Shown: positions 19,455-38,096 of the stretch, in pieces
How the letters are laid out: each line of letters begins with the position of its first letter
Position numbering within the stretch: the first letter of the stretch is position 1
Virus record (IMG/VR): IMGVR_UViG_3300029641_000003
DNA: 64,000 bases
Direction: 5' to 3' (one strand)
DNA from: a virus
Taxonomy: Duplodnaviria > Heunggongvirae > Uroviricota > Caudoviricetes
Translations under genes and position numbers: made by a program
Notes under the pieces: model-generated
What the model was told of the DNA's origin: nothing
What the model saw: only the letters and a program-made list of their open reading frames with translations
The model's database searches: none

Positions 19455-19530
19455 TGGTGGCCCCTACCGGACTTGAACCGGTGACCGTGCGATTATGAGT
19501 CGCCCGCTCTAACCACTGAGCTAAAGGGCC
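19455..19530 (-). tRNA. tRNA with CAU anticodon (Ile2-like, or Met)
   Basis: Reverse complement GGCCCTTTAGCTCAGTGGTTAGAGCGGGCGACTCATAATCGCACGGTCACCGGTTCAAGTCCGGTAGGGGCCACCA folds as cloverleaf; resembles recalled E. coli ileX. Confidence 0.8.
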
Positions 19531-20486: not shown

Positions 20487-20562
20487 TGGTGCCGGTTAAC
20501 GGACTCGAACCGCTGACATCCTGCTTACAAGGCAGGCGCTCTACCAACTGAGCTAAACCGGC
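20487..20562 (-). tRNA. tRNA-Thr (UGU)
   Basis: Reverse complement GCCGGTTTAGCTCAGTTGGTAGAGCGCCTGCCTTGTAAGCAGGATGTCAGCGGTTCGAGTCCGTTAACCGGCACCA. Confidence 0.85.
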
Positions 20563-20564
20563 AT

Positions 20565-20639
20565 TGGCGATGGTGGATGGATTCGAACCACCGACCAGTT
20601 GGTTAACAGCCAACTGCTCTACCACTGAGCTACACCATC
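20565..20639 (-). tRNA. tRNA-Asn (GUU)
   Basis: Reverse complement ...GTTGGCTGTTAACCAAC...GGTTCGAATCC...CACCATCGCCA; abuts tRNA-Thr. Confidence 0.8.
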
Positions 20640-21950: not shown

Positions 21951-21951
21951 T

Positions 21952-21983
21952 ATGTTAGAAAAACAATTTTAATTTTCTAACAT
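21952..21983. promoter_or_regulatory. palindromic operator pair
   Basis: ATGTTAGAAAAACAATTTTAATTTTCTAACAT downstream of the 402-aa gene. Confidence 0.6.
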
Positions 21984-21984
21984 A

Positions 21985-23213: not shown

Positions 23214-23228
23214 TTAGTTTTCTAACAT
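23214..23228. promoter_or_regulatory. operator-like motif
   Basis: TTAGTTTTCTAACAT, 20 bp upstream of the 402-aa gene start. Confidence 0.55.
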
Positions 23229-23302
23229 ATTTTATTAGTATGCAATTTCAATAAAAAGACTCAGGCAACAAAAAACCCGCCAACTGGCGGGTTTATGACC
23301 GT

Positions 23303-32695: not shown

Positions 32696-32908
32696 TCAAG
32701 TTACGATCCAATCATTACCGACTGCATCCGCCGTCGATAAATCGACTTCCCGGATCTGGTATCCATTAATACAAAACCATCCAGTAGTAGAGCTATTATC
32801 AGGCCAGACCCATACACCAACACTCCATGCTTTACGGCGGCACACTTCAGCCTGTCCTTCCCTGATTTTTTTTACCGCCTGCATGATGTCCATCACTCGC
32901 CTCCCCAA
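32696..32908 (-). CDS. hypothetical small protein
   Basis: 70-aa ORF overlapping the end of the Rha-like gene. Confidence 0.35.
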   Translation of the reverse strand: MGRRVMDIMQAVKKIREGQAEVCRRKAWSVGVWVWPDNSSTTGWFCINGYQIREVDLSTADAVGNDWIVT

Positions 32909-33600
32909 CCGATTACCTGGAATTGCCCCATCCTTGGGTGATACCAGCGTTTTCCTCGGTGTTCAGCCTCCGACATCATCAGGGTAAAGGCATTCATGAA
33001 GGGAGATAAGGCCACAATAGTACGACGCGACAATACCCCCTCTGGCGTCAAAAACTCATGCGTATCTGTGGGGATCCGGTAAGCGTTGACCAGGTTACGG
33101 CATTTGGCTTCAGTCAGGCCGCATTTCGCCGCCAGTTGGCGGTAGCCAATGTAGCCTTCTGGTATGTTGCCTTTCTTGATCTGCTCGACGGTTTCAGCGA
33201 CCTGGCTAACCTTTGACTCAACAGCATGAAGCCGCTTTTGCTGCTGAACTGCATTCGCAGCCATTGCAGCGATCATCTCTATTTCGGTCAACGGCTGGCG
33301 TACTTGTTCTTCCAGTTCGCGCCAGCGGTCCACCAGCCGGGCGGTGAATTCGGGAGAGAGCTGCGCAACGACAATAATGCTGTCTCGTTTGCCTTGCTCG
33401 CCTTCGAAGACGTAAGCCTCAACGCCACGACGCAATCCTAAGTTATTGATTTTTTCGAAAACAGCCATTGGCGGTTTTCGGATAATGCTTCGAGCAACCA
33501 TACGCTCAATACTACGTTTAACGTCAGAGTGTTGACTTCCCACCAGCTCCGCAATCTCAATGCTGGTCATTGATAGTTTTTCGAGAATGCAGATATCCAT
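32893..33600 (-). CDS. Rha-family regulatory protein / antirepressor-like
   Basis: 235 aa; N-terminal MTSIEIAELVG... typical of Rha proteins. Confidence 0.65.
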   Translation of the reverse strand: MDICILEKLSMTSIEIAELVGSQHSDVKRSIERMVARSIIRKPPMAVFEKINNLGLRRGVEAYVFEGEQGKRDSIIVVAQLSPEFTARLVDRWRELEEQVRQPLTEIEMIAAMAANAVQQQKRLHAVESKVSQVAETVEQIKKGNIPEGYIGYRQLAAKCGLTEAKCRNLVNAYRIPTDTHEFLTPEGVLSRRTIVALSPFMNAFTLMMSEAEHRGKRWYHPRMGQFQVIGWGGE

Positions 33601-33824
33601 CAGTGAGCCTCCGCAATGCCGGGATTGGTAATATTGCGATACCAGGGATTAGTGTTTGGTTGTGGGGAAGTAGAGAAACGACCAGTGAGAACGCCATACT
33701 GATCAGGGATCAGAGAACGGGCTTCTTTTTCAGTTGCGGCAATTGCGAAGTGATCACAATGTTTTTGCAGGGAGTGGAAACGCCAGATGAATTCTGGGCG
33801 TGAGCAATGATTGGCATTAACCAT
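33600..33824 (-). CDS. small protein upstream of Rha-like gene (Icd-like position)
   Basis: 74-aa ORF translationally coupled to the Rha-like gene; follows a 330-nt leader behind an operator pair. Confidence 0.35.
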   Translation of the reverse strand: MVNANHCSRPEFIWRFHSLQKHCDHFAIAATEKEARSLIPDQYGVLTGRFSTSPQPNTNPWYRNITNPGIAEAH

Positions 33825-34152
33825 AGTTACGGCCTCGTAAGTTGATAAACAACCTGCGACCCGCTGTCAAACAGGTGGCAGGACGTGACAGGGTTGACAG
33901 ACTGGCACTTACGAAACCAGCAGGCCGAAGCCTCCCCATCACGCCCCACCATAATTCGGGCGTAACGTGGTTTTACGGACACAAAAATACCGCAATATCG
34001 GAAATGTGCGGTTGTCCGCGTAAGTATTCAGGCTGTCAAACCTGGTCGCAGAATTTGCTACGACGGCATGAATATAAGCCTGAACATTAGAAAGATCAAC
34101 AGAATTTTTATCAAATGCTGTTTTTTAGTGACAATGTAAATCATACATTCTT

Positions 34153-34183
34153 GATTAGAAACATCAATTTAATTTTCTAACAT
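34153..34183. promoter_or_regulatory. palindromic operator pair
   Basis: GATTAGAAACATCAATTTAATTTTCTAACAT. Confidence 0.6.
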
Positions 34184-34239
34184 AGATTTTCGAGCGATGA
34201 AATTCCCGCCGCACGGTTATTGTACAGTCAATCGCAACA

Positions 34240-35199
34240 TCATCCCCGAAAGCCCTCCGGAATTGACCAGTCTTCCCGGTCAAATTCAGACCGATAGCCA
34301 CGCTGTATCATCAGGTCAAATGCTTCATTGATGGTTGCACATCCCTGGGAACCAGAATAATCCATAGAGAAATCCAGGGCGCTGGATCGTTTGGGCTTAT
34401 TCACTGTGGTAGCACTACGTAACCATGCAAATTTTTTTGCCAGTTTTTCAGCGGTACGATACAGAGCCTGCCGTTTTGCGTACCCCTCGTCTGAACGACG
34501 CTTTGCAGCTCTCGCTTTTGCTGCCGCCAGGCAGTGGTTGGTATGTTCTTCCCTGATTACTGTTTTTTTATCCAGCAAGCCATTATCCGCTTGAGAACTA
34601 TCTGCTGGTGAAGCCTTTGGCTGAACCGCGCATGATCTTTCTCTTCTTTTGGCTATAGAGTGACTCTTATTTTCTATTGGCTGTTCATTTTGAACATGGG
34701 GGGGCTTGTTCAATTTGAACAGGGGGTTCCCAGTTTCAAAAAAATAACGAACCTTTGAAATCAACTGCTTAACCAGTTTTGTGGCGTTGGCAAATTTGAT
34801 GCCCTGCTTACTCCCTATCTCCATTGCTACATGAATGAAGTGGAGAAATTGTGTTGTAAACCGGTACACGTTACACACCTGAGCATTGTTATTCGCTACC
34901 TGATGCTGCTTAACAAGCATTCCGCACTTCGTCGCTTCGGCAAATGCCCGGCGCACAGTAGAAATACTGCGTCCTGTAATCTCGGACATATCCGCATATG
35001 AGCGACGGATCATGTATTCATCGGTAGCTCCTGCCAGGTTGGCGAACTCGGCAATAATGGCGCTATGTGAAGGGGAAAGAAAACCGCTATGACGAGCAAA
35101 AAAACTCAACTGATGACCTTTGATTTTTTTGTGGTATTCAGTGTTGTTTTTATACTCAGAAGTGTTGAAAGTAACTGAAACTGAATTTAAAATACTCAC
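34240..35199 (-). CDS. HTH protein, possibly RepL-like lytic replication initiator
   Basis: 319 aa; helix-turn-helix EMSEITGRSISTVRRAFAEATKCGMLV; operator-like motif upstream at 35371..35385. Confidence 0.4.
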   Translation of the reverse strand: MSILNSVSVTFNTSEYKNNTEYHKKIKGHQLSFFARHSGFLSPSHSAIIAEFANLAGATDEYMIRRSYADMSEITGRSISTVRRAFAEATKCGMLVKQHQVANNNAQVCNVYRFTTQFLHFIHVAMEIGSKQGIKFANATKLVKQLISKVRYFFETGNPLFKLNKPPHVQNEQPIENKSHSIAKRRERSCAVQPKASPADSSQADNGLLDKKTVIREEHTNHCLAAAKARAAKRRSDEGYAKRQALYRTAEKLAKKFAWLRSATTVNKPKRSSALDFSMDYSGSQGCATINEAFDLMIQRGYRSEFDREDWSIPEGFRG

Positions 35200-35370
35200 C
35201 AGATAGTTCCGTGAAAAATCTATCTACCGTATAAATCTATGCCAGTGGATTTATACACCCAAAAGCCGCTACTCAGCGGCTTTTGCTTTTTTTGGCAGTC
35301 GCTACCGGAGCAGTGACCGCGATCCTACTCGATCACGTGCCGTCGGATCAACAGTGTATAAAAACACACT

Positions 35371-35385
35371 GTGTTAGAAAATTAA
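35371..35385. promoter_or_regulatory. operator-like motif
   Basis: GTGTTAGAAAATTAA. Confidence 0.5.
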
Positions 35386-35398
35386 GCTATCTTTTAGC

Positions 35399-36397
35399 TC
35401 ACATCCTCTTAGACACAAAGATCAGCGGAGTCACCGTCTTGTTCTCTTTCACCGGTATTTCTTGTTGTTTATTGGCTGATATTGGCAGACCATAAGTGGC
35501 ATTAGCCCCCAGGGATTCAAGCATCGCTGCAACAATGCGTGCATCATCCTCTGACTGCATACGGCAGAGCGCCCGGCGCTGTTCTGTGCTGATAAAAACA
35601 GGCATTTCCTGGATAGCATCACGCAAAATACGGCGGCATTTCTTCGCGTTCTCCCCCTGGCTTTCCATCATCGCGGCCTGGTCGCGTAGTTTGTCGCGAA
35701 GCTGCATATTTTCCACTTCAAGATGTATCAGTTCCGACTCCAGAACTTCACGTTGTGCTGATTCGAGTATGGCTTGCTGACTCTTCATTGCTGAAAAGTG
35801 GTGAACCAGATCCGTAGCAGCATTATCGGTAAAACCTTGTTCGATAAGTGCCGCATGAATCGCCGCGTCGCGTTCTTCTGCTGATTCAAGCATCAGGCTT
35901 TTCTTGTCGAGGCTGATATAGTTAGGCACAGTTACGTAATCAAAACCGTGAAAAGACTTTACCAGGGATACAGAGTAATCTGGACCAGATGTAGCCCATG
36001 ACCAACCACCTGCGCCAGAATTAATCATACCCTGAACAATACGTCCGGTGTCCGTATCCAGTATTTCCTGTGTATGGGTAACAATGCCGTTGTCGTCAAT
36101 TGAAATGTCGATAGTCCTGTTTGACGGCACGTTCTCCAATACAACAGGCTTCCCATCTACCATCACAACAGAGACTTCCGGCAAGTCCAGGCTTTTCGTT
36201 TTGTTATAGTGCATCGCCCGGCGACCATGACCGTAATAACCATACATCTCACCCAGTGCGATACGCTCTTTTGTTTCTGGCGAGTTGAATGTGTCTCGTA
36301 CCGACTGGATAACGTAATTGCGATTGTTCTGAGGTGTGTGTTTGCGGATTTTCTCTACCAGGGAGAAGCGATCCGTAACGGTATTCAGTGATTGCAT
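35399..36397 (-). CDS. putative head processing protein (Pro position)
   Basis: 332 aa immediately downstream of the portal-size gene; coiled-coil C-terminal half. Confidence 0.4.
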   Translation of the reverse strand: MQSLNTVTDRFSLVEKIRKHTPQNNRNYVIQSVRDTFNSPETKERIALGEMYGYYGHGRRAMHYNKTKSLDLPEVSVVMVDGKPVVLENVPSNRTIDISIDDNGIVTHTQEILDTDTGRIVQGMINSGAGGWSWATSGPDYSVSLVKSFHGFDYVTVPNYISLDKKSLMLESAEERDAAIHAALIEQGFTDNAATDLVHHFSAMKSQQAILESAQREVLESELIHLEVENMQLRDKLRDQAAMMESQGENAKKCRRILRDAIQEMPVFISTEQRRALCRMQSEDDARIVAAMLESLGANATYGLPISANKQQEIPVKENKTVTPLIFVSKRM

Positions 36398-36410: not shown

Positions 36411-38096
36411 TTAATTATTGCTCATCACAAATTTTGCAAAGTTGATTAATTGTTCTTGCGTCCAGTTTTCCGGATCGTCACCGGACGACAACGGCGCGGA
36501 TTCGTACATACCATGCTCGTTGTTTTGCTCTGATTCATTCGCCTTAAACTCTTTGATCATTACGTTGAGAGTGTCATCGTCGATACGAAGCTGTTCGGTG
36601 AACAGATAACGCATAAACGCGTCGCTACCCGCCAGTTTCGGGTTGTTCTGGATCTGGTCCATTATTTGCGAGATGACAGCTACGAAGTTGGCGCGCGCAT
36701 CCAGCTCTCGGTTTTCCTCTTCCTGGATAGCTGTATTCATTGAGTTGAATTGCACGTCATAAGGACGGTTTTTTTCGGTGTAAACCTTCCCGTATTTATA
36801 AGCGAGGTGAATGTCATGAAGCCGATAAATAGTCCGCTGGGCGGCCTGTCTGATCCAGTTCGCGCGTAATGCGGCCTGGATAGCTGTTTGCTGCCAACCG
36901 CCTTCTCCAAGTCCACCACTCATCTGATCAGCCCAGCCAAGCATTGTTGCGTCAATACCGAGGCTTGCCGCGAGCTGTCGGAGATGAAACATAACGTCTT
37001 CGATACCACTGATATCTGCGGGTATAGATTGCGTATCAATGGTGATCCCGTTCTTCCCATCCCCCATGACGGGTATCAGATGGTTAAGTACAGATGGGAG
37101 AGCATTAGAATTAATCGACCGTTGCGCTACGAGGTCGCTATGACGCTTCAGTGCCTGGCTGACCCCGCGCGTATAATTCGCCGCGTTTACCGGATCTATC
37201 GTGTTCGTTGTGAGTGCAATCAGGCGATCAATTTTTGCAGCGTTGTTTCGCGTTGCTTTCAGCGCAGCAAGCGCGGCACATAAATTCAGGTAGGGTTCAT
37301 AACTGTATTCAAGAAACGACGTACCGTAGTTCTGCGTCTCCATTAACGGCTTGTCCTGCTGTTCACTAAGCAAGGAATAGCCTTTAGTGCCGTAAGTTAC
37401 TGGCATTACTTTATGCTGAGGCGTCCAGTACGGGTTTTTCATGGAAACCAGATTCCACGGTTCGGTTATAACTCTGCGCAAAGTATGCGTATCCAGAATG
37501 TAATCACCGCTGAATCCGACAAGTTGGCTACCGCGATAAAACTCCTGAACGAAATGAGGGAGCGTGTAATAGCTCGACTCAATTCCAGTTATCCCCTTCC
37601 CTTGCTCTGCATATGGACGGATATACGACACACCGAAAATAGCCATGATCATGGCCCACGATGGAAGGCCATCATTAATCATTGAGCTTAAATCAGCGGT
37701 CAATTCCTCACATCGACTTACAGCCTCCTTATCCGCCCCATTTTTCGGCGCGAGAATAAATGCGAGGCCTGTTTTTTTTGATGGAGCCAGAGAATGCGCA
37801 ATGTGAATGTTTAATGCTGTGGAGATAGTCGGACTTTTCGCCATCGTCTCCAGTATGTTGTATTTTTGCAGGCGGTCACTCGGTAATTCTGCCGATATAG
37901 ATACTGTATCCGCCGCGCTTGTCATGCCATCGCTATTGCTCCCCAGGATGCCAGGACGCAAGGCGGACAGGCCAGAACGAGCAACGACGCTATGCCCGCT
38001 CGCAAATACGACCGGATCGGCAGGCGTAACATCACCACCGCTGAAGGCTTTCTTCAATGCCGACAGAAAGCCCTTGTTTTTGTCTTTCGTTGCCAT
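36411..38096 (-). CDS. putative portal protein (Prt position)
   Basis: 561 aa; size and position relative to the Pro-like gene match P1 prt-pro. Confidence 0.5.
   Translation of the reverse strand: MATKDKNKGFLSALKKAFSGGDVTPADPVVFASGHSVVARSGLSALRPGILGSNSDGMTSAADTVSISAELPSDRLQKYNILETMAKSPTISTALNIHIAHSLAPSKKTGLAFILAPKNGADKEAVSRCEELTADLSSMINDGLPSWAMIMAIFGVSYIRPYAEQGKGITGIESSYYTLPHFVQEFYRGSQLVGFSGDYILDTHTLRRVITEPWNLVSMKNPYWTPQHKVMPVTYGTKGYSLLSEQQDKPLMETQNYGTSFLEYSYEPYLNLCAALAALKATRNNAAKIDRLIALTTNTIDPVNAANYTRGVSQALKRHSDLVAQRSINSNALPSVLNHLIPVMGDGKNGITIDTQSIPADISGIEDVMFHLRQLAASLGIDATMLGWADQMSGGLGEGGWQQTAIQAALRANWIRQAAQRTIYRLHDIHLAYKYGKVYTEKNRPYDVQFNSMNTAIQEEENRELDARANFVAVISQIMDQIQNNPKLAGSDAFMRYLFTEQLRIDDDTLNVMIKEFKANESEQNNEHGMYESAPLSSGDDPENWTQEQLINFAKFVMSNN

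Follow-up and report, generated by a model that had tools for sequence, protein, structure and literature searches.

The interval 33825-34240 of the DNA analysed here, a stretch of 64,000 nucleotides from a virus of the Caudoviricetes (IMG/VR record IMGVR_UViG_3300029641_000003; the whole 64-kb stretch is referred to as the window), is very probably the leader of an immI-type operon (c4-icd-ant) that encodes a true homologue of the c4 antisense RNA of P1 and P7. According to sequence comparison, the window belongs to a D6-like phage-plasmid of Escherichia coli. The interval corresponds exactly to the gap between the stop codon of a repL-like gene (34240) and the ATG of icd (33824), and the genes and elements of the locus (c4, then icd, then ant) are all encoded on the minus strand.

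A first-pass annotation of the same DNA had noticed a decamer occurring twice in a long leader and had proposed a c4-like antisense control as in P1 immI. This proposal is borne out by matches to the Rfam families RF01695 and RF03163 above their gathering scores, by the transfer of features annotated in P1 and by covariation between the RNA and its targets. The likeness in layout was correctly recognized; the locus is, however, a homologue of P1 immI rather than a mere analogue. What had been missed was a further repeat (b1/b2), the c4 gene between the two decamers and the placement on the minus strand. The coupling of a 74-aa open reading frame (ORF) to a Rha-like antirepressor gene, likewise proposed, agrees with a one-base overlap (TGATG) of the stop codon of the former and the start codon of the latter, and with the matches of the second ORF to Phage_pRha and PHROG 63.

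Homology to the immI region of P1

Positions 33713-34099 of the window share 85-90% identity with the corresponding c4-icd segments of P1, P7, SJ46, RCS47 and others. The leader part alone reaches 87-94% identity when compared with P1, P7 and SJ46, and 91.5% with D6. What the locus has in common with P1 (~90% DNA identity) is the RNA cassette together with the initial three quarters of icd; in its antirepressor and in the neighbouring genes it differs. Two strict features of P1 immI, namely homology of the antirepressor to Ant1/2 and an operator of the P1 type, were both looked for in the window, and neither was found. As the RNA and icd parts are shared with P1 but these two features are not, the locus is a D6-type variant of immI with an orthologous c4.

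The c4 RNA

The Rfam model C4 (RF01695) matched over its full length (1-87) at 33871-33956 on the minus strand, which includes short flanks of the RNA, with 69.6 bits (cut-off 45; E = 1.7e-11), and no non-standard pairs were flagged. The companion model c4-a1b1 (RF03163) was also matched over its full length (55.2 bits; cut-off 46.7; E = 3e-11). A scan of the whole window at gathering thresholds returned only these two elements and three tRNAs, and all testable defining features of the C4 family were present.

The 77-nt c4 differs from that of P1 at five positions, all of which are located in the b' loop. For the 86-nt segment matched by Rfam, a minimum free energy (MFE) of -43.3 kcal/mol was calculated (z = -4.5), and an equally good fold occurred in none of 200 shuffled sequences. 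The MFE structure consists of a long stem around a UUCG hairpin, a second hairpin presenting b' in its loop, and an unpaired junction of 7 nt, which is a'. This independent fold reproduces the long stem and the two internal elements of RF01695. The stem starts with GGUGGGG and ends with GCC followed by ACC, and the sequence prerequisites for RNase P are identical to those of P1.

The repeated decamer and the target boxes

The positions of the boxes, c4, the promoter P51b and the icd start were obtained by carrying over the curated annotation of P1 via alignment. Order and spacing of the P1 features a1, b1, c4, a2, b2, P51b and the icd start are preserved in the window, where all of them lie colinear with P1. 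Further entries of the P1 record are the promoter P51a and the operator Op51.

An exact count over both strands of the window confirmed the two copies of the decamer GCTGTCAAAC (33863-33872 and 34032-34041) with the spacing of 169 bp reported by the first-pass annotation. If one mismatch was allowed, six matches were obtained versus 5.0 expected, and the other four are located elsewhere in the window. According to our estimate, 128 kb should contain a given 10-mer in ~0.1 exact copies by chance, and a direct repeat of any 10-mer within ~416 nt has a chance probability of roughly 0.08. Therefore, the repeat by itself is only suggestive, and it derives its significance from conservation and covariation.

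At the RNA level the decamer reads GUUUGACAGC and contains the boxes a1 and a2. Its two copies are complementary to 33894-33900 within c4, so that the repeats do have a local partner. The idea that the repeats are antisense targets needs one extension: the decamer represents the a box, but it is a separate b box that reaches the ribosome-binding site. The b boxes originate from the second repeat, ACUUACG on the RNA, which corresponds to CCGCGTAAGT and CCTCGTAAGT on the plus strand. With its last two bases, b2 extends into the icd Shine-Dalgarno sequence GAGG (33836-33833), of which they form the start; GAGG ends 8 nt before the ATG.

A repeat finder detected four complementarities between c4 and its targets (a'-a2 7/7, b'-b2 8/8, b'-b1 7/7, and an extended a'-a1 14/16). 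Segment duplex energies were -9.2 kcal/mol for the cognate a pairing and -18.6 kcal/mol for the cognate b pairing, compared to -4.4 to -6.7 kcal/mol (a) and -8 to -13 kcal/mol (b) for non-cognate combinations. Full recognition is predicted within the type of D6 and the window only.

Covariation and specificity types

Covariation was analysed in 14 distinct leaders, i.e. those of the window, D6, P1, P7, SJ46, JL22, 673R5, a fragment labelled ECO95 and six IMG/VR contigs. Standard base pairs were found in 210 of 210 cells for a'/a2 together with b'/b2, and in 196 of 196 cells for a1/a' together with b1/b', which makes 406 cells of c4-target pairs, every one of them standard. Changes on both sides affect eight pairs and 50 cells in each of the two sets (eight of the 15 pairs for a'/a2 and b'/b2). 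When the partner was slid by one to three columns, only 28-51% (a'/a2 and b'/b2) or 27-42% (a1/a' and b1/b') of the cells were paired, and none of 500 shuffles reached the observed covariation values.

Among these leaders, the a box is either UUGACAG or UUAGCAG, and a' matches as CUGUCAA or CUGCUAA. The b box occurs in at least six forms (CUUACG, UUAGUG, AUUGUG, CGAAUG, GUACAU and CACAAAG), and b1, b' and b2 switch jointly. A wider set of 126 loci from viral contigs, found by a 15-nt c4 anchor, comprised ~60 combinations of a and b boxes with three-way matching. As far as sequences can tell, this comparative evidence for an RNA-RNA interaction is as strong as it gets, and it is because of the covariation that we exclude binding sites on the DNA and chance as explanations of the repeats.

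The window and D6 combine the a box of P1 with the b box of SJ46. Other loci of the D6 type carry other c4 types: L040 is of the P1 type (GA and UUAGUG), L021 combines AG with UUAGUG, and L122 combines AG with CGAAUG. It follows that the boxes assort independently of each other and have moved between P1-like and D6-like lineages. The two a types (GA and AG) combine with at least six b types among the 14 P1/D6-like cassettes. We tentatively suggest, as a possibility that falls a little short of probable, that the c4 boxes are independently assorting modules of a combinatorial immunity code common to two very divergent phage-plasmid lineages. If so, a nearly identical RNA cassette of ~300 bp would be a portable switch that was recombined ahead of unrelated antirepressors. 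If both boxes are needed for repression, the element would be heteroimmune to P1, P7 and SJ46, with one box common with P1 and the other with SJ46.

Alternative explanations of the repeats

The decamers could also be sites for a protein that binds DNA, either iterons of a RepL-like protein or additional repressor operators, and their complementarity at the RNA level would then be incidental. They are located 190-380 bp downstream of a lytic replication gene, near which direct repeats are often iterons, and real operator-like DNA motifs exist further upstream in the leader. However, the decamer is absent from the rest of the window, and P1 carries the boxes although its repL is located elsewhere. 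Moreover, a protein site would need no complementary third copy, whereas the exchange of GA for AG in the a box is mirrored within c4 in 14 of 14 sequences, and likewise the six variable positions of the b box. Such protein sites are therefore extremely unlikely. The notion of a functionless coincidence in an AT-poor leader could draw on the chance of a repeat of this kind within ~400 nt and on the one-mismatch count, which equals expectation (both given above). Yet both copies are invariant or covarying across the relatives, both lie in or beside Rfam matches, and both are complementary to c4. Taken together, Rfam matches, complementarity and covariation refute a coincidence, the probability of which is close to negligible.

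Another explanation accepts the c4 cassette as such and regards it as an inactive remnant, recombined from a P1-like phage and no longer regulating the unrelated Rha-type gene. The homology to P1 indeed ends inside icd, near 33713 on the DNA and at residue 61 of the Icd protein, and as the downstream gene is unrelated to ant1/2, the junction is recombinant. On the other hand, an intact icd still overlaps with the start of the following gene, the geometry of the Shine-Dalgarno sequence and b2 is unchanged, the four complementarities are all perfect or nearly so, and the layout is kept in 110 plasmids. In addition, c4 and both target sets have switched jointly in the D6-type loci with other a and b types (L021, L040 and L122), and such a pattern requires that selection for pairing continues in the D6-type lineage. 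An inactive remnant is thus very unlikely, and a c4 homologue that still acts on its operon is the preferred interpretation.

Gene layout and relatives

The segment 32600-35400 is 99.8% identical to an E. coli plasmid of 91.7 kb (NZ_CP104667.1) and 92% identical over 2.8 kb to Escherichia phage D6 (NC_050154). A total of 110 plasmid records contain at least 80% of this segment; like D6, they retain the arrangement repL-c4-icd-Rha. P1-like c4 loci occur in two layouts, c4-icd-ant1/2-kilA (P1 type) and repL-c4-icd-Rha (D6 type); members of the latter are the window, D6, L021, L040, L074, L080 and L122. The gene order annotated in D6 is darB-like helicase, CHAP/TIGR02594 hydrolase, orf17, Ant, icd-like, gap, repL-like, pro and prt. 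The orf20 of D6 is annotated as 'similar to P1 gene repL' (lytic replication protein). The repL-like gene is context and stands outside the antisense circuit. The features of the locus are compiled in Table 1.

Table 1. Features of the c4-icd-antirepressor locus and its surroundings (window coordinates).
Feature	Position	Strand	Evidence or remark
repL-like lytic replication gene	34240-35199	-	319 aa; 28% identity to P1 RepL, E = 2e-25
Operator-like inverted repeat	34155-34184	.	strong half-site TTTTCTAACATA at 34173-34184 (+), weak half-site at 34155-34166 (-)
Upstream sigma-70-like promoter (TTGATG, 16 nt, TATGAT)	34140-34167	-	9/12 consensus matches; -10 element at 34145-34140
Downstream sigma-70-like promoter (TTGATC, 17 nt, TATATT)	34071-34099	-	homologous to P1 P51b (P1c4)
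c4-a1b1 motif, two hairpins, a1 in the loop of the second	34025-34077	-	RF03163
Box a1 (UUGACAG)	34033-34039	-	P1 transfer; within upstream decamer 34032-34041; covaries with a'
Box b1 (ACUUACGC)	34018-34025	-	P1 transfer; complementary to b' (7/7); covaries with b'
Mature c4 antisense RNA, 77 nt	33874-33950	-	placed by P1 homology
b' (UCGUAAGU), c4 hairpin loop	33907-33914	-	complementarity, fold, covariation
a' (CUGUCAA), single-stranded junction of c4	33894-33900	-	complementarity, fold, covariation
Box a2 (UUGACAG)	33864-33870	-	P1 transfer; within downstream decamer 33863-33872; complementary to a' (7/7)
Box b2 (ACUUACGA)	33835-33842	-	P1 transfer; complementary to b' (8/8); covaries with b'
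icd, 74-aa Icd-like cell-division inhibitor, leader ORF for the antirepressor	33600-33824	-	NCBIfam NF033153 phage_ICD_like
Rha/Roi-type antirepressor, 235 aa	32893-33600	-	Phage_pRha, PHROG 63
70-aa ORF overlapping the end of the antirepressor gene	32696-32908	-	PHROG 7385 (unknown function); conserved as D6 orf17

The 74-aa ORF matched NF033153 with 40 bits (cut-off 25; E = 3e-10) and PHROG 1426 (E = 2e-38); Pfam gave no match for it, and the family was found by NCBIfam and PHROGs. It shares 59% identity with P1 Icd over residues 1-61 and diverges after residue 61. The 235-aa ORF passed the cut-off of Phage_pRha (PF09669) marginally (residues 11-98; 31.0 bits versus 29.9) and matched PHROG 63, 'anti-repressor Ant', with E = 1.4e-45; its counterpart in D6, orf18, is annotated as 'anti-repressor Ant, similar to HK97 Roi'. 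The 70-aa ORF that follows is probably the last gene of the operon.

The plasmid NZ_CP104667.1 (L009) possesses a second cassette at 36987-37467 on the minus strand, outside the window. It consists of a C4 element (77.1 bits, 37257-37344), an isrK-like element (62.7 bits, 37389-37467) and an Icd-like ORF (36987-37202). The loops of this second C4 differ (CCUUUGA and UUCCAA), and therefore the two c4 systems should not cross-react. The second C4 is overlapped by an ORF annotated as 'ash family' (37221-37340). Similarly, the 'hypothetical protein gp42' of phage JL22 (L005; 474-644) overlaps a c4 gene. Both protein calls are probably spurious ORFs over the structured RNA.

Promoters and operators

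The length of the leader varies with the promoter: it measures ~310 nt from the upstream promoter-like site and ~240 nt from the downstream one, so that the ~330 nt given by the first-pass annotation is an approximate value. The -35 (34099-34094) and -10 elements (34076-34071) of the downstream site align base for base with the annotated elements of P1c4. The upstream site is the positional analogue of the C1-controlled P1 promoter P51a (P2c4): its position relative to the operator parallels Oc4/P2c4 of P1, and the stretch has no sequence homology to P1.

A scan of 33500-35400 detected no intrinsic terminator on the minus strand between repL and icd, and transcription from the repL promoter might therefore read through into immI. 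The sole hairpin resembling an intrinsic terminator in this region (35260-35285) lies on the plus strand between the pro-like gene and repL.

An operator pair had also been proposed ahead of the leader. What stands is an inverted pair at 34155-34180 next to or across the upstream -35 element; a further, weak copy at 34086-34099 has no conserved counterpart in D6. The pair does not consist of operators of the P1 type, as the P1 C1 operator ATTGCTCTAATAAATTT had no match in the window with up to three mismatches. This absence fits a C1-like protein that is only distantly related (21% identity) to P1 C1.

The palindrome TTAGAAA-N12-TTTCTAA occurs twice in the window (21955-21980 and 34155-34180) versus zero occurrences expected. 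The half-site TTTTCTAACATA has five exact copies, compared to an estimated ~0.01 expected. They are found upstream of the C1-like ORF (13571-13582, minus strand), as a palindromic pair at 21951-21984 (21951-21962, minus strand; 21973-21984, plus strand), upstream of a 402-aa coiled-coil-like ORF (23218-23229, plus strand) and in the c4 leader (34173-34184, plus strand). A further copy with one mismatch is located upstream of repL (35370-35381, minus strand). The sites have a common AT-rich 5' flank (ATTTAA/ATTAG). The inverted repeat in the leader is conserved in D6 and overlaps or abuts the -35 element of the upstream promoter. Judged from these sequence patterns, it is a good candidate for the operator of a D6-type C1-like repressor, distinct from the P1 operator. 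Its motif takes the place that the C1 operator has in P1 immI.

Besides this motif, a 23-nt direct repeat (34086-34108 and 34154-34176) was considered as operator and dropped in favour of TTTTCTAACATA. The 14-mer common to both copies, TTGATNTTTCTAAT, is not convincingly recurrent, and the copy at 34086-34108 is not conserved in D6.

A cluster of three tRNA genes on the minus strand (19458-19530, 20490-20562 and 20568-20639; 67-76 bits with the Rfam tRNA model) is placed downstream of the operator-like palindrome at 21951-21984.

The C1-like ORF is located at 13538-14638 on the plus strand, with a probable start near 13601, and shares 21% identity with P1 C1 over residues 8-242 (E = 1.5e-5); it had no match in Pfam. 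Its product is presumably the primary repressor, which the Rha-type antirepressor would target.

Proposed mechanism

The model outlined here builds on the homology, the RNA family, the fold, the four complementarities with their covariation, the identities of the ORFs and their overlap, all of which were observed. Two minus-strand promoters would transcribe the operon, the upstream one flanked by the C1-type operator and the downstream one being the homologue of P51b, and the transcript would contain, in this order, a1-b1, c4, a2-b2, icd and the antirepressor gene. The tRNA-like stem of c4 with its 3' ACC overhang would be excised as a 77-nt RNA (33950-33874); RNase P is responsible for the 5' cleavage in P1. 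Its b' loop and a' junction are predicted to pair with b2 and a2, to cover the start of the Shine-Dalgarno sequence and to block translation of icd. The antirepressor start overlaps the icd stop, and without translation of icd no Rha-type antirepressor would be made; the C1-like repressor would then keep the plasmid prophage quiescent. If c4 becomes limiting, or does not match the sequence of an incoming relative, Icd and the antirepressor would be produced and the repressor inactivated. The a1-b1 copy is a conserved second site at which c4 would bind the precursor, possibly as a decoy or a folding aid; the P1 record, too, calls its role 'putative'.

These steps follow P1 and P7. In the account given by PMC12197685, which cites Citron & Schuster 1990, c4 of P1 and P7 pairs around the ribosome-binding site and blocks synthesis of the antirepressor, which is the basis of the heteroimmunity of the two phages. 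Full repression of the ant operon needs both C1 and C4, and Icd inhibits cell division (PMC8198154). The C4 precursor is named as a substrate of RNase P in a statement of PMC2190699 that refers to Hartmann et al. 1995.

Several points weigh against such a circuit in the window. Processing, translational block, polarity, promoter roles and the target of the antirepressor are all adopted by analogy to P1; co-transcription is presumed as well, and Rho-dependent polarity within icd is not readable from a sequence. The work of Biere, Citron and Schuster in 1992 and of Heinrich and colleagues in 1995 reportedly described Rho-dependent polarity in P1, in which transcription ends early when icd is not translated, and a constitutive P51b. 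Promoter-like matches in 33500-35400 are not enriched over shuffled sequences (4 found, 3.4 expected), so that both promoters rest on homology and position; statistically, the scan for promoters and terminators is uninformative in this region. A cofold of the 77-nt c4 with the a2-b2 region by ViennaRNA gave no dimer gain, a calculation in which nested-structure algorithms cannot model loop-loop pairing. No match to P1 Ant1 or KilA was obtained by tblastn against the window at E <= 1e-3, and the antirepressor is unrelated to P1 Ant1/2. Finally, P1 C1 and the C1-like protein share no more than 21% identity, and inactivation of the latter by the Rha-type protein is an assumption.

Significance of the cassette

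The 415-bp gap between repL and icd, which appears 'empty' in D6-like phage-plasmids, holds a c4 gene, four target boxes and two putative promoters. Neither the RefSeq record of D6 nor the plasmid gene tables that were consulted annotate any of these elements (the PLSDB tables contain no entries for RNA genes). A point of modest wider interest is that combinatorial c4 boxes are common to P1-like and D6-like elements. In E. coli and Salmonella such elements often harbour resistance genes, and typing of c4 could predict which of them coexist and which exclude each other.

Comparison with known systems

The system as such is already known: the mechanism in P1 and P7 was worked out around 1990-1995, and c4 homologues in D6-like plasmids have already been reported. 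The D6-like pYU39_89 was described with homologues of c4, icd and the antirepressor and with a second c4/icd region (PMC6799933).

The order a1-b1, c4, a2-b2, icd is that of immI in P1 and P7, with ~7 nt from a1 to b1 and ~21 nt from a2 to b2. As for P1 in particular, c4 is identical outside the b' loop, P51b is homologous, the a box is of the P1 type (UUGACAG), b2 abuts the Shine-Dalgarno sequence of icd, and the stop codon of icd and the start codon of the following gene overlap. In contrast, the b box of the window is CUUACG, the type of SJ46 and D6, versus UUAGUG in P1 and AUUGUG in P7. Furthermore, the antirepressor is of the Rha/Roi type and not Ant1/Ant2, no kilA follows downstream, repL lies directly upstream rather than downstream, sim genes are absent, and the upstream promoter/operator region is not homologous to that of P1.

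D6 has the same gene order and identical c4, a and b boxes. It differs in that a second TTTCTAAT copy is absent at the position of window 34086-34099, and its RefSeq record contains no annotation of c4.

The IsrK/C4-like prophage cassettes (Rfam clan CL00128), such as IsrK-orf45-anrP of Gifsy-1, likewise possess a structured leader RNA ahead of a small ORF, with translational coupling to a gene of the antirepressor type (PMC12197685, PMC4825925). IsrK, however, reportedly switches on translation of orf45, in contrast to the repressing c4, and the copy in the window matches C4 and c4-a1b1, not isrK. The sar RNA of P22 immI is also a small RNA that pairs with a ribosome-binding region and prevents synthesis of an antirepressor in the lysogen (PMC12197685). 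The sequences are unrelated. The sar RNA is encoded in cis on the opposite strand and is fully complementary to its target, whereas c4 is transcribed from the same strand as its targets and recognizes them through two short loop boxes.

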